DNA from: a virus
Strand: one strand, 5' to 3'
Virus record (IMG/VR): IMGVR_UViG_3300046557_000512
Location: 1-64,000 of that record
DNA length: 64,000 nt
The notes beneath the pieces were generated by a model. The model did not search any database. It was not told where the DNA came from and worked only from the letters and a program-made list of their open reading frames with translations. Position numbers and translations under genes: made by a program. Shown here in pieces: positions 10,595-54,854 of this stretch. Position 1 is the first letter of the stretch, and the number at the start of each line of letters is the position of its first letter.

Positions 10595-10635
10595 TGGGGT
10601 GATTCCTTATTGTGTGTGTGTCGTATACCATGCAC

Positions 10636-26665: not shown

Positions 26666-26721
26666 GTTTGTCACTCCTTTGTGTGTGTCGTCTACCATGC
26701 ACCGCGAGCAGCGCAACCGGT

Positions 26722-30271: not shown

Positions 30272-30507
30272 AAGCTGAATTTCTCCATGCAGGTTATCCT
30301 ATGCATGTGTGTTGAATAGCATGCAGTCTACCACGGGTAGTGGAGCTGTGCAACGGCAACGCAACGTTTGGATTGGTGCGAGGTCATCGTGCGGGCTACC
30401 TTGAAAACCGGGTATGTGCATGGTAGATAACACAACTGCGTGTTATACTCAACAGCGGTTGCACGCCGTCAACGCGTTTCACCACCCATCGGAGTTCACC
30501 AAACAAA

Positions 30508-31248: not shown

Positions 31249-31272
31249 AAGGGGGCCGGAAGGCCCCCTTTT
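31249..31272. terminator. Intrinsic terminator between convergent genes
   Basis: AAGGGGGCC-GGAA-GGCCCCCTTTT. Confidence 0.8.
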
Positions 31273-31717
31273 AGTATTCTAGCGCTGGCGGTTCGGGCCA
31301 GACGACTTCTTCTGGCGATCCAAAGTCGATCGCGATCCGATGCAGAGCGCGGATCATCACCCGCACCTGAGCCTGGCATCCCGGCGTAAGCGGGGAGCAC
31401 CCCTCATCCACAGCCCAGCGCCAGCGATCGATGCGCAGATTGCGCTCTGATCGCACATGATCCCCCATCGGTGTATCCCAAGGGTTGGCGGCAGCGCGCG
31501 CCGCGGCGTCCGCCTGTTCGGCTTCAGCAGCGATCTCGCGCTGAGTGTGAATGATGCAGCAGGCGCAATAACCCTTCTCTCCATCTTCGTCAGGCACGAT
31601 CGCGAAAGCCGGCAGACTCTTGCCACAGCCCCCGCATTCGTAACCGGCAGGGTCGAGCTTGGATGGGTCGACCCCCGCGGCGATCGCGTGATCTTCGAGA
31701 TTGATATAATCGGTCAC
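31271..31717 (-). CDS. Tail fibre assembly chaperone with N-terminal Zn finger
   Basis: CGGC...CACC; VRSERN...SPL...RAL...VVWPEPP C-terminus typical of tail assembly chaperones. Confidence 0.75.
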   Translation of the reverse strand: MTDYINLEDHAIAAGVDPSKLDPAGYECGGCGKSLPAFAIVPDEDGEKGYCACCIIHTQREIAAEAEQADAAARAAANPWDTPMGDHVRSERNLRIDRWRWAVDEGCSPLTPGCQAQVRVMIRALHRIAIDFGSPEEVVWPEPPALEY

Positions 31718-32069: not shown

Positions 32070-35000
32070 TCAGTCGGGGATGAATGACGAGTGGAGGGTG
32101 ATCGTGCCGGAGAATTGCAGCCGGTAGTTGCCGTCTGTCGCGTCGGGCGAGCTCGACTTGTCGATTTGCAGAGTTGGTCCGCTCCCTGGCGCCGTCGAGG
32201 TCGTCAGGTCGTAGTTCGACGGGCTTGCCGGCGTCAGGATACGAAGACGAGCCGTGAAGCCGGTAGAGGTCAGACTGTCGGCGTAGAGCTTGTAGGTCTC
32301 GCCAGCGGAAAGTGGCGCCAGGTTGTTCTGCTTGAAATCGAGCGCAGGCAGAGCTCCAAGATCCGTGCCGAAGCTGACGACGTCGCCATCCGAGACAAGG
32401 AAATCCTTCGACTTCAGCGCTACAGGCCAGCCTTGCCCGGAGCCGAGACGAATGAACGCGCCGGCCTGAAGACCCCCGGTAAAGACGGCGTTGCCGCCGA
32501 CCATCTGGAGCGTGAGCGTCCAGCCGGCGGTGGTCTGATTATAGAGCGAGATGTTGGACGCGCCGATCGCGACGTCCGACGTCAGAGTTCCATTGTCATC
32601 CTTTGCACGGAAGCTGATGAACGCAGCCGCGGCGCCAGCCACAACTTCCTTTTGGGCGTAGGCTTCGACCTTGCCGTTGACCGTAACAAGCGCTCCCTCG
32701 GTCGTGGTGACCCGCGACGACAGCGACGTGATGCTCGACGTAGCTGCCTGCGACGCAATCTCCTGGTCGGTCGCAGCACGGAATGATGCCCGATACCATT
32801 CGATCACCTTGGCCGCGCGCGTCAGTTGGGCCCAGTTCGACAAGGCGAACAGAACAGGCTCGGTTGCCGCTGCGTCTTGCAAGCGAACCAGTTTCGCGAA
32901 ACGATACGTGGTGCCCGCGACGCCTGCACCGACCGCGTTGCCGCTGCTGTCGGGATCAGAGAAAAAGTCGATCCGACCCACATCCACCTGATAGGAATTG
33001 CTGCTGTTGTAGCCTTGAAGCAGCATGCTCGACCCGGCCAGCGAACCGCTGATAAGCCTGACTTCTGCTTCCAGCACATACCAGCCGAGACGAAGCGTGC
33101 CTTGACCCATTGCGGTAGTGTTGTTCCAGCTCTGCTGATGTCCGCATTCTTCGGCGGCCGCCACCGTATCGCGAATGGCGAAGCCACCGCGAGGGCTGGT
33201 TACGCGGGCGCGCGTGGCTGCACCGGTGTAGGCCCAAACGCTCCAATTATCGGGCGGGTTCGACGCGTTCGCCCACGCGTTGAAGAGCGGGTTGACGTTG
33301 ATCGAGTTGGCGCCGATCGTCGCGGCCAGGTTGGCGCTCGACAGCGCGGCAGCTGCGCTGGCCGACGATGCCGCTGCGAAGCTCTGCGCATTGGTCGCGC
33401 TGGTCGATGCGTTGCCCGCTTGCGTGGAGGCCGTGACGGCCGAGCCGGCCGCGGCAGTCGCGCTGTTCGACGCGTTCGTGGCGGACGTGTTTGCGTTCGA
33501 GGCTTGGGTGCTTGCAGTGGACGCGCTGCTCGAGGCGTTGCCGGCGCTGGTGTTGGCGGCGGTGGCCGATCCGCTGGCGGCAGTTGCAGACGTCCCCGCG
33601 TTGGTCGCGCTGGTCGAGGCATTCGACGCGGACGTCGCAGCGGCGGTCGCGGATCCAGCTGCATTGAACTGATCGGTGACGTCCTCGAACTTGCACGAGG
33701 CCAGCTGATAGGTGTTGCTCGCATTGAGCGCGGCAAAGATCGGCCTGATATAAACGCCACCGGCAGCAATGACCGTATCGCCCGACACCTCAGTGACGCG
33801 CGTCACCCAGGTGTTCTGGGTCAGGATGCCACTGCCCGTGGAGATATTGGTCGCCTGATTATAGGCGTCGTTCAGGTAGGTTAGGTAGCAGGCGAACTGA
33901 GGGCTGCCGACCGGCACGTTTGTGACGCGCGCCGTCATCGTGACGCGATAGCGCCTGCCCGCCTGCGCCTTCATCACGCCGATCGACGAGTAATAGGTCG
34001 AGCCCGCACCGTCGACTTCGAACACCTTGCCGATGCCCGTAACCGTTGGGAACCGGAAGGTGGCGTTGGTCTGTATCGACACCCTGGTCGCCGGGTCTCC
34101 CGTATAGCCGGCCTGCCAGAACTTGCCCTCTTGCGTGAAGTCGCTGGGGAAGGTCGCGGCGGCGCTTTGAAGCGCGCCTGCTGCCGAGCTCGAGGCCGAG
34201 ACCTGGGAAGCCAGCGCAGCACTCGCGCTGTTCGACGCGTTGGTCGCCTGGGTGCTCGCGGTAGAGGCGCTACCAGACGCAGCCGTCGCCGAGCCAGCCG
34301 CAGCCGTTGCCGAATTGGATGCGTTGGTCGCCTGCGTGGACGCTGTGTTGGCCGAGCCGGCCGCATTCGTCGCCGAAGTGGCCGCGGTGGTTGCACTGGT
34401 CGAAGCATTGCCGGCGCTGGTCGAGGCGTTCGTGGCGCTGGTCTGTGCAGCACTCGCGCTGGTCGAGGCATTCGTGGCGCTGGTCGAAGCAGTGCTGGCC
34501 GAGCTGGCCGCTGCCGACGCACTCCCCGCAGCGGCGGATTGCTCGGTGATGTCGCGGATGTAAAGCGCGGTGACATCGACACGGGCCGCGGTTGCAAGGT
34601 TGGCCCCAGTGACATCGCGGTTGGTCAGAAGGCCCAACCGAAATACTTCCCCGGCAACCCCAGACGTCGTCGTGTCATAGGTCCAGGTGAGCGTCTGAAC
34701 GGTGCCGTCGAGGAGAACGTAGGGAGACAGAACAACGTTGCCGCTATTGGCCTTCGCCGCGTTGAAGCGCGTCAGATATGCGCCCGCGTAGTTTGCGGCC
34801 GATCCCGATACCTTCTTGATGACCGCGACAAGCTGATACTTGCGACCAGGCGCCCACACGATCTTGCTGTTGCACCAGGCGCCCCACGGATACGAAGCGG
34901 CCGCGGTGTCGAGCTGGATCGTCTTTCCGTCCGTCGACATGGTGTTAGCCGGCAGCGAACCATCGGCGTAGTTGGTGAACGCCTGCGTGAAGATCCCAGC

Positions 35001-37283
35001 CGACACGGACTGCGGGAACGTGCTGGCGAGCGACGACATCGCGTCTGAGGCGCTGTTACTGGCAACTGTGGCGCTCGAAGCCGCCGCGCTCGCTGAACCC
35101 GACGCATTCGTGGCACTGGTCGAAGCTTGACCCGCTGACGTGCTCGCATTGCCCGCCGAGGTGTTTGCAGCGGTTGCGGAGGTCTGCGCGGCAGTTGCCT
35201 GCTGACCAGCGGTTGTCGCGGACGACGCGGCATTCGAAGCCGACGTGCTCGCAGCGGTCGCGCTGGTGGCTGCATTGGTGGCGCTGGTGCCGGCGTTGGT
35301 TGCTGCCGTCGTAGCCACCCCGGCCTGCGTGGTGGCCGTCGATGCACTGCCGGTCGCACTGGTCGCGCTGTTCGACGCGTTCGTCGCATAGGTGTTGGCG
35401 TTGCTCGCCGAGGTGCTGGCGTTAGTGGCGCTGGTCGAGGCGGCCGACGCGGATGTGCCAGCGGCGGTCGCGGATCCAGCCGCGCTCGAGGCAGAGGTTG
35501 CCGCGGCGTTGGCGCTGTTGGACGCCGCCGTCTGCGCGGTGACGTCTGTGATCGTCAGGCGGCGGATTTGAACCGTCGTCGATGTCGCGCCCCCAGCGAA
35601 GGCTTGTGCATACGGGCGCAGCCACACTGAGCCGGCCGGCCAGGCGGCAATCCCAGCACTGGCAGTGTCGCTGACAGTGACCGACATGGTCTGAACGGAG
35701 CCGTTCATGACCGGCCCGTTGTTGGTCCCGGCTCCGACCGAAGCGTAGGATGCGTCGAGTCCCCGCACGTTCATTTGCACGGTAGTCGACGCGTTGCCAG
35801 TGCCGACGATCGCGGTCTGCTGGTATTCGACCTCGAACTTGTAGATCTTGCCCGGCGTCGCTGGAACGACGGCGCGTGTGGTAAAGATGAATGAGCTGCC
35901 AGAGACGACCGTCTGCTGGTAAACAGGCCCGTAGCCCGCCGCTGTCGCGTTCGACGGCAACCCAGCGCTCGAGGACGGCGAGCCTGCGATGGAACCCAGC
36001 ACGAAGTAGTCCCCAGTGCCGTCGTAGCGGTCAGGGAGCGTCTTCACGGCGTTGATATTGGCCGATACCTGCGAAGCAGCAGCAGCGGCGGCTGAGTTGC
36101 TCGAGTTGGTGGCGCCCGTGCTGGCCGTCGTGGCGGAACCGGCCGCAGCAGTCGCGCTGTTGCCGGCGTTGGTCGCGCTGGTCTGCGCTTGGGTGCGGGC
36201 CGTCTCAGCCGCGGTTTGTGCGGCGACCGATGCTGCGCGGGCGGTGTCCGAATTGGTAGCGGCTGTTTGAGCGGCGGTCTGTGCGCTCTGAGCGGCCGTC
36301 AGCGCCGTTTGAGCGGCACCCTGGGCCGCGGTGGCGTTGGTCGCCGCCGTGTTCGCGGTGTCGCGGTAGCCCTGCGCGGAGGTCGCGCTGGTGGCCGCGG
36401 CGGCAGCGCTGGCGGCGGCTGCCGCGGTGCTCCCGTAGGTCGCTTCCAGCTGATCCTGGCGCGTGGTGATGTCGTCGATGTTCTCGAGGACGGTGTCGAC
36501 GGGGATGCCGCCTACATGGTGCGTGTCGTTAGAGGTGCCCTGCCCCGTGATGACGTCGCCGTCGTGGATGAGGTTGCCGTTGCTATCCCTGATGTTGCCG
36601 GCATGGCCCATGTCGTTCCCGAGAGAGCCGCCGACGGTCGCGCCGTCTTCGGGTTTCCCAGGGCCGGTGACGCCGCCCCAGTTCGCCAGCTGGCTCGCGC
36701 GATCAGCAAGAGACGCGTCGAGATCGGCCTGCTTCGCCGCGACCGCTGCGAACGCAGTTTGGAAGTCTGCTTGAACGATGCCGGGCGTGTCGCCAGTGAA
36801 GTCGTTCCACGCGGGCTTTCCACCGGCCGACAGGGTGTTGAGGTAGACATCGAGCGCCGTCTTGGCGGCGAGCAAAGCGGAGCGCGCGCTATCCAGACCA
36901 CCAAGCTGCACTGCCTTGGCGGCCGAAGCGGCCACACTGGCCGCGATCTGGTTGTAGGTCGTGACCAGCGAGGGTTTCTCGCCGCGCGAGAGGATCCCGT
37001 CGCTCGTGATGCCAGCGAGGTCACTAATGACCTGACTGGCAGCGACGCTCATGATCGTACCGGTCACGTCGCCGGCGAAGGCGACGTTTGCCAGCGGCTG
37101 ATAATGCGCGCTCTTGGCGCCGATCAGGTTGCTGTAAATTGCCCCGCCCGCGGCGATGTCAGCATCGACCCGGCGGTAGGCGCGAACCTGGAAGGTGTAG
37201 AACCGATCGGCGGCCACGCCGGGGAGGATGATCGAGCGCTTGTTGGGCTGGACGAACACACTGGTGGCTGCGGGGGTCGGCAT
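32070..37283 (-). CDS. Long tail fibre / receptor-binding protein
   Basis: Stf-like A/S/T/N heptad stretches alternating with four globular modules of about 160-180 aa. Confidence 0.88.
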   Translation of the reverse strand: MPTPAATSVFVQPNKRSIILPGVAADRFYTFQVRAYRRVDADIAAGGAIYSNLIGAKSAHYQPLANVAFAGDVTGTIMSVAASQVISDLAGITSDGILSRGEKPSLVTTYNQIAASVAASAAKAVQLGGLDSARSALLAAKTALDVYLNTLSAGGKPAWNDFTGDTPGIVQADFQTAFAAVAAKQADLDASLADRASQLANWGGVTGPGKPEDGATVGGSLGNDMGHAGNIRDSNGNLIHDGDVITGQGTSNDTHHVGGIPVDTVLENIDDITTRQDQLEATYGSTAAAAASAAAAATSATSAQGYRDTANTAATNATAAQGAAQTALTAAQSAQTAAQTAATNSDTARAASVAAQTAAETARTQAQTSATNAGNSATAAAGSATTASTGATNSSNSAAAAAASQVSANINAVKTLPDRYDGTGDYFVLGSIAGSPSSSAGLPSNATAAGYGPVYQQTVVSGSSFIFTTRAVVPATPGKIYKFEVEYQQTAIVGTGNASTTVQMNVRGLDASYASVGAGTNNGPVMNGSVQTMSVTVSDTASAGIAAWPAGSVWLRPYAQAFAGGATSTTVQIRRLTITDVTAQTAASNSANAAATSASSAAGSATAAGTSASAASTSATNASTSASNANTYATNASNSATSATGSASTATTQAGVATTAATNAGTSATNAATSATAASTSASNAASSATTAGQQATAAQTSATAANTSAGNASTSAGQASTSATNASGSASAAASSATVASNSASDAMSSLASTFPQSVSAGIFTQAFTNYADGSLPANTMSTDGKTIQLDTAAASYPWGAWCNSKIVWAPGRKYQLVAVIKKVSGSAANYAGAYLTRFNAAKANSGNVVLSPYVLLDGTVQTLTWTYDTTTSGVAGEVFRLGLLTNRDVTGANLATAARVDVTALYIRDITEQSAAAGSASAAASSASTASTSATNASTSASAAQTSATNASTSAGNASTSATTAATSATNAAGSANTASTQATNASNSATAAAGSATAASGSASTASTQATNASNSASAALASQVSASSSAAGALQSAAATFPSDFTQEGKFWQAGYTGDPATRVSIQTNATFRFPTVTGIGKVFEVDGAGSTYYSSIGVMKAQAGRRYRVTMTARVTNVPVGSPQFACYLTYLNDAYNQATNISTGSGILTQNTWVTRVTEVSGDTVIAAGGVYIRPIFAALNASNTYQLASCKFEDVTDQFNAAGSATAAATSASNASTSATNAGTSATAASGSATAANTSAGNASSSASTASTQASNANTSATNASNSATAAAGSAVTASTQAGNASTSATNAQSFAAASSASAAAALSSANLAATIGANSINVNPLFNAWANASNPPDNWSVWAYTGAATRARVTSPRGGFAIRDTVAAAEECGHQQSWNNTTAMGQGTLRLGWYVLEAEVRLISGSLAGSSMLLQGYNSSNSYQVDVGRIDFFSDPDSSGNAVGAGVAGTTYRFAKLVRLQDAAATEPVLFALSNWAQLTRAAKVIEWYRASFRAATDQEIASQAATSSITSLSSRVTTTEGALVTVNGKVEAYAQKEVVAGAAAAFISFRAKDDNGTLTSDVAIGASNISLYNQTTAGWTLTLQMVGGNAVFTGGLQAGAFIRLGSGQGWPVALKSKDFLVSDGDVVSFGTDLGALPALDFKQNNLAPLSAGETYKLYADSLTSTGFTARLRILTPASPSNYDLTTSTAPGSGPTLQIDKSSSPDATDGNYRLQFSGTITLHSSFIPD

Positions 37284-37329
37284 CCCCGCATTATAGGTTA
37301 TTGCATGTGTGTTGTCACCTATGCACTAG
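37284..37329 (-). promoter_or_regulatory. Sigma70-type promoter with overlapping operator motif; leaderless start
   Basis: GTGACA (37318-37313), 17 bp, TATAAT (37295-37290), 6 nt, ATG; repeated motif at 37308-37326. Confidence 0.75.
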
Positions 37330-40300
37330 CTACGTTGCGGAGCTGGTCACCATCACCTCAAATCCATCGATTGAAGCCTCGTCGCCAGTCCAGCCCCACT
37401 CAAAGCTGATGTCGGCCGAGCCGTCCGTGTTGACAGTGTGATCGACGTCTGTGCCGACCTCAGTTGTAGGCGCCGGGATCGCGGCGCCGTTGCGGTTATT
37501 CTGCGACAGGAAGTCGGCCATGATCGACCCAGGGGCGATCGCGATATCGAACGACTTTTGGACCCAGGGCGACTCCGACGTTTCGCTGACCGAGCGCACC
37601 TGCGCGACCCAGCCGCCCGTTTCGAGGCCGGTGATCGTCACGAGCAGTGAGCTGTGAACGCCAAGGCTGCTCCAGTCGGCCGCGGTCGACTTGCGATACT
37701 GCACCTCATATCCGGTGACGCCGGTCGCGTCGGCCGGCGGCGAGATGACGACGTCCGCTGTGCCGTCGACCTGGAAGTTCTTCGGTACGACCGCGATCTC
37801 TTCGGGCGGATCGAGGTCGGAATAGGTCACAGAGATGGTGCCGCGGACACCAGGGGCCGTCGGCAACGGGGCGCGATCGCCATGCTTGTTGTAGGCGCAC
37901 ACGCGAAACTCCACCACGTCGCCGGGGTTCGCGGTCACCATGTATTCAGCGACGTTCACGGCCGAGCCGATCGGACGAAGCGGCCCTCCATTCACGCCCA
38001 TATAGACGTCCGCACCCGCGTAGTTGCGGATGCCGGCGGCGCTCCAATGGACGCGGGCGCTGATGGACTTGCGGTTGGCCTCGACCAGACGCTCATAGTC
38101 GAACAGCACCGTCTGGACATGACCGACCGCTCGATCTGACAGCGAAGTCACCGGCGTCGGGATCTCGACCTCGGGAGGCCCATACACCAGCTCGTTATAT
38201 TCACCGAACGAGAGCTTGCGCTTCTCGATACCAGTGCCTTCGATGCCGATCAGGGTGTAGATCCGCGGCGTATCGGTGACCTCGCCGAAGATGAAATTGC
38301 GTAGAGCGTCAGGCGCCCCCGGCAACGGCGTCGACACATCGACAAAGGTCTGCGTCACCTCGGCGGCGGGCGCCACGACTGGGCACTCGATCACTGCGTC
38401 GGTATCCCAAAACGCAACCTGGGCGCCGACCGTGAAGCCAACGGTGCTGTCGAGCAGGATGGTATCATAGGTCCCGCCCTTCACGAGATCCACAACCTCG
38501 GCGTCCGCGGTGCCGCATGTCACGCGCATCGGCGGCGCAGCCGTCGACAGCGAAGCATTCGTCGGCAGGAGAATGCGATTGCCGACGACGTTCGAGATAA
38601 CCGCCGTGCCGGCGGCCGTGGTGTCAAAATGGACCATCAAGGCATATTGCTTGCCTGGGATCAGGTTGACCTCTTGATCGAGCTGAACACGGGTCGTCGT
38701 CGAGCCAAAAGCCGTGCGGCCACTCTGGCTCCACTCCATCATCGGATGACTGATGAGCGCGTTCTCGCCGATCGTCAGGTTGATCGACTCGAGGCCGGTT
38801 TCGAAATCGATGGAGCGGATCAGGACCCGGTTGGCATAGATGAAACGCCACAGCTGTGCAGTTGCCTGCGCGATGTTGTCGACGCCGGGCAGTTCCAAAG
38901 CCGCCGTGCGCTTGGCTTCGTTGAACAGCACCGCCTTCGGATCGACGTATCGAATCGTCTTCTCTTTGTTGCGGTCGTTCTTGTCATAGAAGGACAGCTC
39001 GAACTCATTCGCGCGATCCGTCATACCCATATAGGTCACCTGGAAGGTGCCCTTGTGGATGTTGCCGGCGCCGAACATCGTTACCGGGTCGCGCGGTCGG
39101 TCGATTGCGACGCTCAAGCGGCGGCCGAGCGGAACAGGGGCCGCATAAGCCACGCGCAAGACGGTCGCCAGCGCGTCGCCCACGTTGCTGGATTCGGCGA
39201 AAACACCGTTGAAAGTGATGCCTTTGTCGACGCAGTATTGAGCGAAATCGACCCACGCCGGCCAGTCGATCTGATCCAACGGGAAGCCGCAACCGCGCTG
39301 CTCGCCGCAAAGGATGTCGAGACAGATCCAAGCGGGGTTGGCTGACCAACGCTTGACCGTCTTGTTACCCTCGACGTCATATTCCTGAAGGATGCAGCCG
39401 CGCGTGCGGGCTGTCACCGTCGGGATTTGGTTGAGCTGTTCGCTCAGCTTGATGCGCAGGCTCAGGTTGGCCGTGCCGCGCAGGGCAACTTGCTCGGTCT
39501 GGATCTCCGCGACGTCGGTGAGATAGACCTCGTCAACCTTGTATTGGTCGGTAGAGGTCGCGGTGGTCCGCCTAATCCGCACCTCGTGATAGGCCAGATT
39601 AAGAGGGCCGCTTTCGAACGACTTTCGAATCGCACGCGTGCGGCTGTCCTGGACCGTGATCTGTCCGGTCTGGTTGTGCGGGTAAACCACGACCTGCGTG
39701 ATCGTCGCCCCAGGGATGTCGATGTTGACGTCCCCGCCGCCGGGGTTCTGGATCTCGTAATAGTCGCCGCCGACCGGAGAAATATCGGTCTGCCCCACGA
39801 CAGACCCGTCACCTGACGGGTCGAAATTATAACCGTATGCGCCAGGATCAGCGATCGTCGGCGACATGGAAATCCATTCGCCACCGTCGATGCGATAGCG
39901 TGCCTCAGCACCCGTCTCCAGTGCGGCGCTCTGCTGGTAGCCCTTGCTGGCCCACACCTTCATCAAGAGCCCGTTGATGAGCGGATTGTTGAACCAATTG
40001 CTATTCTGGTAATTGCTCGGATTGCCGCTCGCGCCCGTCCAACCCGAGACCGGCTGCTTGGTGACAGGGTCGAGCTCGCGGTATTCCATCACGAAGGTGA
40101 CGCTTCGTGTGCTGTAGGTGCCCTTCTTCTTATCGACGTTGACCAGACCCGTCGTGAAGGAGACGTCAAAGCGCACATGATCGACGGGCGTCGTGGTCTG
40201 GTGGATGACGTCAGCCGTGTCGATCTTGACGCTCTTGTTCACCTGGCGCAGCGAACGCCCGAACCAAGGGTTGACGTCCTCGGTCAGCGTCCCCTTCTTG

Positions 40301-40986
40301 AGGATCGTTTGAACGTCGGTGAAGTTGCTGATCGGCTGCTCATTGAGCTCGAGGTCATAGACGCCCTCAATCTCCCCATCGTTGAGCACAGCTCGCAGAT
40401 AGAGATACTGATCGTCGCCGACGTTCTCCGTATACGTGTCGGCAAAGTTTCCGCCGGTGCGGAACTCGCCATAAACCACTTGATACGGGATGTTCTCGGT
40501 CGCGCTATTCTTCGCGCCGTCGATACCATAGGAATTATTGTTCTGGTCTGCCGGCGTTTTCGGCTTCGGCGTCAGGAGCAGAGCGTTGATGACCCCGGCG
40601 ACCGCCATTCCGACGGCCAACGCGCCGGGGATGCCGATGATCGGGGCGAGAAAGACGAGTGAGGCCACGACGGCCGCGATCGTCACAACCATGCGAAGGA
40701 TCGACTTCAGGCCGTCGCCTCCCTGCGGGACCAGCAGCAAACCAATGACGTCACCGGCGTCGATCGCCACCGTCTTGGCGTCAGCGAGGTCGACCTCACG
40801 CCCATTGACGAAAACCATCCACTCGCACTCGGCCGGCAAGCCATCGAGATATGTCGCCAGCGGCTGACCCGTTTGATGGACCAGCTCGTGGATCTCGACT
40901 GTCGACGGCGCGAAGACGTCGTAGAGCAGGCGCAGCTCGACCTCATCGGCCGCGCAGGTCGACGCAGGAGCGAGAATTTCCCTCAT
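37330..40986 (-). CDS. Tail tip / central fibre protein (lambda I+J-like)
   Basis: N-terminal ubiquitin-like I domain (PQGG), PYQVVYGEFRTGGN, WSANPAW, FN3 repeats. Confidence 0.9.
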   Translation of the reverse strand: MREILAPASTCAADEVELRLLYDVFAPSTVEIHELVHQTGQPLATYLDGLPAECEWMVFVNGREVDLADAKTVAIDAGDVIGLLLVPQGGDGLKSILRMVVTIAAVVASLVFLAPIIGIPGALAVGMAVAGVINALLLTPKPKTPADQNNNSYGIDGAKNSATENIPYQVVYGEFRTGGNFADTYTENVGDDQYLYLRAVLNDGEIEGVYDLELNEQPISNFTDVQTILKKGTLTEDVNPWFGRSLRQVNKSVKIDTADVIHQTTTPVDHVRFDVSFTTGLVNVDKKKGTYSTRSVTFVMEYRELDPVTKQPVSGWTGASGNPSNYQNSNWFNNPLINGLLMKVWASKGYQQSAALETGAEARYRIDGGEWISMSPTIADPGAYGYNFDPSGDGSVVGQTDISPVGGDYYEIQNPGGGDVNIDIPGATITQVVVYPHNQTGQITVQDSRTRAIRKSFESGPLNLAYHEVRIRRTTATSTDQYKVDEVYLTDVAEIQTEQVALRGTANLSLRIKLSEQLNQIPTVTARTRGCILQEYDVEGNKTVKRWSANPAWICLDILCGEQRGCGFPLDQIDWPAWVDFAQYCVDKGITFNGVFAESSNVGDALATVLRVAYAAPVPLGRRLSVAIDRPRDPVTMFGAGNIHKGTFQVTYMGMTDRANEFELSFYDKNDRNKEKTIRYVDPKAVLFNEAKRTAALELPGVDNIAQATAQLWRFIYANRVLIRSIDFETGLESINLTIGENALISHPMMEWSQSGRTAFGSTTTRVQLDQEVNLIPGKQYALMVHFDTTAAGTAVISNVVGNRILLPTNASLSTAAPPMRVTCGTADAEVVDLVKGGTYDTILLDSTVGFTVGAQVAFWDTDAVIECPVVAPAAEVTQTFVDVSTPLPGAPDALRNFIFGEVTDTPRIYTLIGIEGTGIEKRKLSFGEYNELVYGPPEVEIPTPVTSLSDRAVGHVQTVLFDYERLVEANRKSISARVHWSAAGIRNYAGADVYMGVNGGPLRPIGSAVNVAEYMVTANPGDVVEFRVCAYNKHGDRAPLPTAPGVRGTISVTYSDLDPPEEIAVVPKNFQVDGTADVVISPPADATGVTGYEVQYRKSTAADWSSLGVHSSLLVTITGLETGGWVAQVRSVSETSESPWVQKSFDIAIAPGSIMADFLSQNNRNGAAIPAPTTEVGTDVDHTVNTDGSADISFEWGWTGDEASIDGFEVMVTSSAT

Positions 40987-41360: not shown

Positions 41361-41399
41361 CGCGCAATCATAACACGCATGCGTGTTGTTTGCCATGCG

Positions 41400-42023
41400 C
41401 TAGATATTCATCGGCACAAGGCCGGGCAGCCCGCGGAAGTTGAGGCTGTTGTTCTTCGCCTTGCAGCCGCCGGCGCCCTCCAGGACATAAGTGCAGGTGG
41501 TTTCGGCGCCGGCGTATCCGCAGCCAAAACCCTTGAACCGCCACGCGCAGCGCTCGCGCGACTGACGATACTTGGGGAACTGGATCTGCAGCGGGTTCTC
41601 GGCGCCCAGGGTTGCGGTGATGACGAAGTCCTTGGCCGACGAGCCGAGCACAGAGAAGCGCTCGCGGATCTCGGCGGGGAAGTCGAGGCGGGCAGCGTTG
41701 ACGACCGTGAGAACGACCTCAGAGAAAACGCCGCCGGCGTAAGCCTCGAGCCTCGACTGGATCATCAGGCTGGGATCACGCGCGGTCAACGTGACGTCGG
41801 GAGCCGAACCCTGTTTCTGCACCACGTTGAGGTCGAAGTTGGCCGCGTAATAGATGTTGCCCTCGAACTCGACGTTCTCGGTGTTCGTGACGATGCGGAC
41901 CACCTCCTCCACCACGCGAGTGTTCGGGTTGGTGATGTTGAGGTCGAGCAGAATCAGAAACGCGGTAGCCGACGACAGCTTATTCTTTTCGATGACCGTC
42001 GCGACGGACAGATGGCGAGCCAT
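41400..42023 (-). CDS. Tail tip protein (lambda L-like)
   Basis: C-terminal CAW..GCGY..TC..GC..NFRGLPG Fe-S cysteines. Confidence 0.85.
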   Translation of the reverse strand: MARHLSVATVIEKNKLSSATAFLILLDLNITNPNTRVVEEVVRIVTNTENVEFEGNIYYAANFDLNVVQKQGSAPDVTLTARDPSLMIQSRLEAYAGGVFSEVVLTVVNAARLDFPAEIRERFSVLGSSAKDFVITATLGAENPLQIQFPKYRQSRERCAWRFKGFGCGYAGAETTCTYVLEGAGGCKAKNNSLNFRGLPGLVPMNI

Positions 42024-47803: not shown

Positions 47804-47873
47804 TTATCAGCTCTCCTGGGAAAATATGCAGCCAGCATCATAGCACGCATGTGTGTTATTTGCCATGCACTAT

Positions 47874-51182: not shown

Positions 51183-51226
51183 TCATTCTAGCAAACTGCA
51201 TGCGTGGCGTCTACCACGCACACCGA

Positions 51227-54808: not shown

Positions 54809-54854
54809 GCGGCCAGTTTAGCACAATGCATGCGTGTTGGCTACCATGCACCAA

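Follow-up and report, generated by a model that had tools for sequence, protein, structure and literature searches.

The question raised by this locus is how a long tail fibre is mounted on the tip of a phage tail when the border between the tip gene and the fibre gene falls inside one small protein domain. The locus lies in a 64,000-nucleotide (nt) stretch of viral DNA (positions 1 to 64,000 of IMG/VR record IMGVR_UViG_3300046557_000512, hereafter the window). It comprises a J-like tail-tip or central-fibre hub gene (P0001; 37330..40986, minus strand; 1218 amino acids, aa), a tail-fibre gene (P0002; 32070..37283, minus strand; 1737 aa) and an intergenic cassette of 46 nt from the J stop to the fibre ATG (37284..37329, minus strand). 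The J-like protein (J) ends with ...IDGFEVMVTSSAT, after which TAG follows, and the fibre starts with MPTPAATSVFVQPNKRSIILPGVAADRFYTFQVRAYR. The domain divided by this border was DUF7359, and the two halves of a relative, when joined, were confidently predicted to fold as one fibronectin type III (FN3) domain.

Division of one domain between the J and fibre genes

The profile of Pfam family DUF7359 (PF24058) has 123 positions and a gathering cut-off of 27.5 bits. J residues 1159-1217 matched profile positions 2-64 (expected value 3.6e-11, 43.3 bits) and fibre residues 9-51 matched positions 81-123 (expected value 6e-10, 39.4 bits). The preliminary description of this DNA had recognized FN3-like halves at the J end and the fibre start by eye, and these were now placed quantitatively on one profile. 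In a six-frame reading, the two matches abutted, with positions 2-65 in the J frame (47.7 bits) and positions 64-123 in the fibre frame (47.8 bits), the latter match starting at 37310, 27 nt upstream of the fibre ATG. The genome held only these two DUF7359 matches, and a complete 123-position DUF7359 on one polypeptide was not found in the window, where the halves were located on the J and fibre open reading frames (ORFs). The split of DUF7359 between the J and fibre genes was thereby confirmed.

The first half consisted of an N-terminal linker and strands A, B and C, and corresponded to the last ~60 J residues (37333..37512, minus strand; profile 2-65). This half retained the conserved columns NNR..P..DH.N.DGSADISFEW..IDGFEV. 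The second half consisted of strands C', E, F and G, and corresponded to fibre residues 1-51 (37131..37283, minus strand; profile 81-123). The fibre frame was +1 relative to J, so that the 46-nt gap between ORFs of different frames was as described before. In addition, three TAG stops, one per frame, were found at 37319..37332 on the minus strand (37332-30 in the J frame, 37328-26 in the fibre frame and 37321-19 in the third frame). Because TAG closes all three frames, a simple frameshift or the read-through of a single stop cannot join the two ORFs.

Contiguous homologues and conservation of the split

A search of database proteins produced 56 intact copies of the domain, and the J tail and the fibre head aligned to one continuous stretch of these. 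In the intact copies the break corresponded to a loop, and the commonest number of missing residues was six. Protein P0031 (2508 aa), an orthologue of J with 38.6% identity across J residues 443-1212, has the whole DUF7359 at the same position followed by ~1240 further residues. P0049 and P0050 combine the J tail with the first 226 fibre residues in a single chain. The contiguous homologues that an ancestral fusion would lead one to expect were therefore present. All 21 of the other J-homologue loci extended 417-1550 aa past the homology region, and long single-chain J-fibre proteins thus appear to be the common state. The loci L005/L017, L004 and L007, considered as contiguous examples of the domain, were rejected as they encode fused J-fibre proteins without DUF7359. 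A blastn search of the junction against deposited phages gave no match.

The same loop was broken in three related lineages with J proteins 52-59% identical. These were a 109-kb viral contig (L003/L013; J 59% identical, gap of 44 nt, frame offset -1), a prophage in the metagenome-assembled genome (MAG) of Candidatus Sphingomonas excrementigallinarum (L006; gap of 66 nt, frame offset 0, two TGA stops inside) and a prophage of Sphingomonas sp. NFR04 (L008/L018; gap of 60 nt, frame offset 0, one TAA inside). Furthermore, six database J proteins (1205-1236 aa) ended and five database fibres (1423-2665 aa) began at the same break residue; the junctions of P0003-P0009 and P0042-P0046 were deduced from the protein ends. 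Of 201 genomes in the family to which Sphingomonas sp. NFR04 belongs, two had DUF7359, one in split and one in intact form.

With 35 intact copies from viral contigs as the reference, 43 columns were conserved at 80% or more. The split copies retained 30-36 of these and the intact copies 39.6 on average; the columns retained by the split copies lay on both sides of the break. This indicates that both halves have been under domain-specific constraint since the fission.

Predicted fold of the joined halves

The fold was predicted with AlphaFold2 (AF2) on an in-frame read-through of the relative L008, with the TAA read as glycine and an alignment of 35 rows. The window halves are 52-59% identical to the L008 halves. 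The model had a mean predicted local distance difference test (pLDDT) score of 82.8 and a predicted template modelling (pTM) score of 0.74. Both halves scored above 90, and the 25-residue stretch encoded by the gap scored 42-46 and looped out. Strands were predicted at residues 30-34, 39-45 and 57-66 from J and at residues 95-100, 105-112, 115-126 and 136-138 from the fibre. Among the matches listed by Foldseek for this model, all were FN3 or FN3-containing chains with probabilities of 0.99-1.00. The joined halves of L008 were thus confidently modelled as a seven-strand FN3 sandwich, J contributing three strands and the fibre four, which places the break in the C-C' loop. The gap in the alignment with the intact domains was likewise an insertion at the C-C' loop.

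An FN3 domain is built from two sheets, A-B-E and C-C'-F-G. Both sheets would mix strands from the two sides of the C-C' loop, so that neither piece should fold alone. When the last 176 residues of J were predicted alone, a complete FN3 domain adjoining the orphan half scored 85-97, while the orphan half scored 42-79 and had two short strands. Independent folding of the terminus, the outcome opposed to the preliminary description, was therefore not seen for J. The poor prediction of the orphan half, from an alignment of only 9 rows, is suggestive but not decisive of a need for its partner.

The intergenic cassette

A sigma-70-like promoter consensus, GTGACA-17-TATAAT, was located at 37290..37318 on the minus strand (-35 hexamer at 37318-37313, -10 hexamer at 37295-37290) with 11 of 12 matches. 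Its 17-nt spacer falls within the 16-18 nt of sigma-70-type promoters. No other site was reported by the promoter scan within 2 kb, where 0.4 would be expected. The -10 hexamer ended 6 nt before the fibre ATG and no Shine-Dalgarno sequence was present. The cassette also carried GTGCATAGGTGACAACACACATGCA (37302..37326, minus strand), a copy of the 25-nt motif GTGCATGGTAGAYRACACACAYGCA. The 80.3-kb genome contained ~26 copies of the motif when up to 7 mismatches were allowed; with up to 3 allowed there were 11, compared to none for the reversed control. Both the promoter-like signal and the repeated motif of the preliminary description were thus recovered. All motif copies were co-oriented with their genes and many began 0-8 nt after the upstream stop codon; the extended motif often included TA or a stop. 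Examples in the window were found at 477-501, 10611-10635, 26678-26702, 41376-41400, 47846-47870, 51197-51221 and 54827-54851. The 109-kb relative G004 had 21 copies, one of them at its own J-fibre junction, and reversed controls gave none. The gaps of L006 and L008 carried other repeats of GTGTG/CACAC type.

In the gaps of all four lineages, a TATAAT-like hexamer (TATAAT, TATTAT, TATAAT and TATACT) ended 6-7 nt ahead of the ATG, with a hexamer of TTG or TAGA type 17 nt upstream of the -10, and a Shine-Dalgarno sequence was absent from all. The L003 junction was also called by the promoter scanner (9 of 12 matches). Elsewhere in the window, the motif was followed by a -10 hexamer (TAnnnT), 6 nt and an ATG without a Shine-Dalgarno sequence at 41376-41400 and 54827-54851 (minus strand). 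The genes with this fibre-like layout were the NlpC/P60 tail gene (41376) and a 539-aa ORF (54827), and leaderless starts may be regular in this phage. Because the motif overlaps the -35-like hexamer, TATAAT lies 6 nt before the ATG and the Shine-Dalgarno sequence is absent, the fibre gene probably has a regulated promoter of its own, from which a leaderless or near-leaderless mRNA would be made.

Two other arrangements of these signals were observed. Where the tail module meets plus-strand genes, at 30302-30440 of the window, two motif copies faced away from each other (30302-30326, minus strand; 30416-30440, plus strand), and this stretch looks like a divergent control region. The J stop of the NFR04 prophage is followed directly by a terminator-like hairpin (11591-11608 of L008), which has a weak T-run and lies ahead of the -10-like hexamer. 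The L008 junction may combine a terminator with a promoter.

Proposed mechanism and alternatives

Overall, we consider it reasonably likely that a gene fission occurred inside one FN3 domain, that the joint rebuilt in trans mounts the fibre, and that the cassette acts as a regulated promoter. An ancestral tip protein of the lambda J type would have continued into a long central fibre, and its chain would have been cut in the C-C' loop of DUF7359, leaving strands A-B-C at the end of J and strands C'-E-F-G at the start of the fibre. Three J chains and three fibre chains at the tail tip would then rebuild one FN3 domain per pair (3:3). Each rebuilt domain would be a non-covalent plug-and-socket joint by which the fibre is held on the tail. 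The cut is filled by the 46-nt cassette, with TAG in all frames, the 25-nt motif over the -35-like hexamer, and TATAAT. Re-assembly of the two chains by strand complementation had been proposed in the preliminary description, and the folding of the linked L008 construct as one FN3 domain, with both halves scoring high, argues for it.

Several results weigh against this mechanism. The promoter scanner did not call the L006 and L008 junctions, where the -35 hexamers match at 3 of 6 positions. Several motif copies have no correctly spaced -10 and stand directly before a Shine-Dalgarno sequence and ATG, as at 26678, 18650 and 70095. A tree of 35 J bodies requires at least three changes of the split state. 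Finally, the AF2 model was computed for one chain from a relative, joined by an artificial linker, and intact domains dominated the alignment used for it.

The first two of these results bear on an unlikely but serious alternative, in which docking through the split domain is retained and the cassette is not a promoter. The motif would be an operator or stoperator-type site, an RNA-processing signal or a gene-boundary signal, and the long late tail transcript would serve for fibre translation, started internally without a Shine-Dalgarno sequence and aided by an AU-rich patch ahead of the ATG. Copies of the motif without a -10 imply that the motif itself may be an operator or another signal and not part of a core promoter; the co-orientation of all copies with genes, which recalls the stoperators of Cluster A mycobacteriophages, the weak -35 hexamers of L006 and L008 and the terminator-like hairpin after the L008 J stop also agree with this alternative. 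It accounts poorly for a match of at least 5 of 6 to TATAAT at 6-7 nt before the ATG in four of four lineages, in DNA that is otherwise unconserved around the -10 and has 62-66% G+C (estimated chance ~2.5e-3 per lineage), and for the 17-nt spacing to the TTG- or TAGA-type hexamer kept in the same four.

It is quite improbable that the fission is a matter of decay, with the half-domains as relics and the fibre attached by other contacts or, alternatively, the downstream ORF not mounted on J. Most members of this J family are fused, which is in line with decay. Nevertheless, 30-36 of the 43 domain-specific columns were kept in both halves across four lineages with J proteins 52-60% identical, the downstream fibre ORFs were intact (1005 to >2638 aa) and every break lay at the same residue of the loop.

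Recoding was judged to be very improbable. Under this explanation, translation would take off at the Thr codon ACG before the TAG and land at ACA (37310) or ACC (37298), as in the bypass of T4 gene 60, the in-frame stops of L006 and L008 would be read through, and some fused J-fibre protein would be made. The stop codon does follow the candidate take-off codon directly, the fibre frame has Thr codons further downstream, a landing at ACC would nearly recreate the consensus loop, and the halves are in frame in L006 and L008. On the other hand, the take-off and landing codons are not identical (ACG compared to ACA or ACC), L003 has no matching path, and the stops differ between L006 (two TGA) and L008 (one TAA). 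The 25-nt motif is also found at ~25 ordinary gene borders, and in every lineage the fibre starts with an ATG of its own at the same site, preceded by a -10-like hexamer. A bypass of the T4 gene 60 type was accordingly rejected, as the stop after the take-off codon was the only one of its features present and no common path was found in L003 and L006. An RNA hairpin in the gap was rejected as well, since the fold was unremarkable (z -1.5) and not distinctive.

An assembly or sequencing artefact of the metagenomic contig is excluded for practical purposes because, although the stretch was found in one DNA run only (probably the source itself) and in no RNA run among those listed, the architecture recurs in independent records (Sphingomonas sp. 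NFR04, the Candidatus Sphingomonas MAG and another viral contig).

Evolution of the split

On the tree of J bodies, the nine split forms were found only within the sphingomonad clade, and the fused forms with an intact DUF7359 (P0031 and P0037) were placed outside of it. A single origin of the split as one clade was not supported. The repeated changes of state imply recombinational exchange of the distal part. J bodies that are 46-50% identical were also seen to carry differing distal parts, either split with a DUF7359 fibre or fused without DUF7359 (P0027-29, L007 and L015-17). This implies a recombination hot zone around J residues 1100-1195.

Comparison of the fibre with the fibres of three relatives showed that the first 225-275 residues were shared (50-59% identical) and that the sequences were mosaic beyond. 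In the fibre of the window the shared part amounts to the first ~226 aa. The exchange point for receptor binding would therefore be inside the fibre and not at the split. The exchangeability proposed for the fibre of this locus is thus borne out only in part, the mosaic beginning after the shared residues and not at the junction.

The non-coding stretch at 37284..37310 (minus strand), read in the fibre frame as ..THAITYNAG-M, aligned with the Y-T/N-x-G-T loop of the intact domains. The -10 hexamer TATAAT corresponds to the codons Tyr-Asn in this frame, and deletion of 37 nt (37332-37296) formally restores a single frame. It may be speculated that the -10 box grew from Tyr-Asn/Thr codons and the ATG from a Thr codon, with the stretch as a relic of the ancestral coding sequence. 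Against the relic idea, only the window and L008 have the Tyr in frame; L003 and L006 do not.

More tentatively, at somewhat less than even confidence, the two-gene split FN3 domain may be a conserved plug-and-socket mounting principle that arose when a promoter formed in the domain loop. Tyr-Asn/Thr codons (TAT AAT or TAT ACT) would have served as the -10, the leaderless start would have come from ACG mutating to ATG (Thr to Met) six bases further downstream, and a ~37-nt piece with the motif would have supplied the stops and the -35 or operator. The fibre would then have been regulated and dosed separately. The earlier claim that a J-fibre fusion was split by the cassette was upheld in part. 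Contiguous homologues exist and the split recurs with a promoter-like gap in three lineages, and the cassette as the cause of the split could not be distinguished from the cassette as a later settler.

Genome and tail-tip module

The source record is an 80.3-kb IMG/VR virus from a rhizosphere metagenome with an estimated completeness of 75%, and the phage is an uncultured Sphingomonas-type phage. In the J/fibre part of the window, every gene was on the minus strand. J matched phrog_31, "central tail fiber J" (expected value 9e-96), and its Pfam domains were FNIII-A_GpJ (PF24801), Phage-tail_3 (PF13550) and DUF7359. Genes for a tape measure protein (PF20155), a DUF1833 minor tail protein and an NlpC/P60 protein were identified upstream of J. 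J and its neighbours form a lambda-like tail-tip module, with the hub domains and the gene order of the lambda-type tip attachment protein J. The J N-terminus (residues 54-181; window 40440-40830) matched phrog_32, "tail assembly protein" (gpI-like), and a gpI-like part therefore seems to be fused to J in this J family.

The fibre matched fifteen PHROG families, 11 of which are annotated as tail fiber protein. Its gene contained four blocks of Ala/Ser/Thr-rich stretches with a 21-nt (7-residue) periodicity (families D1-D4) at 33370-36420, separated by similar globular modules of ~150-200 aa. The fibre is thus of beads-on-a-string type with internal duplications. Finally, a small ORF two genes downstream of the fibre (31271-31717, minus strand) had a weak match to PF16778, phage tail assembly chaperone (expected value 0.005, below the cut-off), and its product is a possible fibre chaperone.

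Significance and comparison with known systems

If the proposed joint is real, it would be a natural case of two virion proteins joined by co-folding of one small domain and not by surface contact. No description of this docking principle was found for phage fibres. The literature yielded no paper dealing with DUF7359 or with an FN3 domain split at a fibre joint, nor one that links strand complementation to a phage tail fiber. The locus would also illustrate that a gene border with a regulatory signal can arise in the loop of a 120-residue domain and then persist for long. For phage engineering, the last ~60 J residues and the first ~55 fibre residues could provide a compact socket and plug for swaps of receptor-binding fibres, and the pair could serve as a split-FN3 protein connector. 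In addition, Pfam family DUF7359 gains a predicted fold and a likely role.

The J locus of the window resembles lambda gpJ and the fused relatives (P0031, P0037, P0027-29, L007, L015 and L017) in the gpI-like N-terminus, FNIII-A_GpJ and Phage-tail_3 of J and in the order of tape measure, minor tail, NlpC/P60 and J genes. The fused J-fibre relatives are single chains of 1425-2865 aa, whereas in the window the distal 1737 aa are a separate gene. Cluster A mycobacteriophages have many asymmetric stoperator sites, which are co-oriented with transcription and bound by the phage repressor, and the copies of the 25-nt motif would fit such sites in number and orientation.

Phage genes in pieces are known from nrdA of Aeromonas phage Aeh1, split by a homing-endonuclease gene, and from the split gene 43 DNA polymerases of T4-like phages. 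As proposed for J and the fibre, inserted DNA interrupts a phage gene and the products reassemble into a working protein. The inserts in those genes are whole mobile genes and the proteins are enzymes; in the window the insert would be the 46-nt cassette with its putative regulatory signals, and what is split is structural, an FN3 domain where a fibre is joined. In chaperone-usher pili, a donor strand from another chain completes an incomplete Ig-like sandwich and joins the fibre subunits. Pili donate a single strand to a six-strand subunit, whereas the split in the window is 3+4 at a single joint, with no chaperone identified.

A precedent for a break at the same loop is found in receptor proteins. 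In FnIII-2 of the insulin receptor, an insert is located in the C-C' loop and the resulting chains are also linked by disulphides. The long insert domain in FnIII-2 of the insulin and IGF-1 receptors is cut by furin to give alpha and beta chains (PMC7039211). Both receptors were among the Foldseek matches of the L008 model, and their two-chain FnIII-2 indicates that an FN3 domain tolerates a chain break at the C-C' loop. The break in the insulin receptor is made after folding in one precursor, whereas the two pieces encoded in the window come from two genes and must find each other.

Among virions the nearest parallel is phage T5, which has a hub and a separate central-fibre protein, as in the window. 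Its pb3 and pb4, both trimers, form a continuous FNIII string across a non-covalent chain break (PMC10038345). The C-terminus of pb3 joins the N-terminus of pb4, and the string of five FNIII domains crosses the chain break between whole domains by a loop-to-loop contact (PMC10038345). Unlike the pb3-pb4 joint, the break in the window is located within one domain, after strand C, and the J-fibre joint would be made by folding and not by surface contact.

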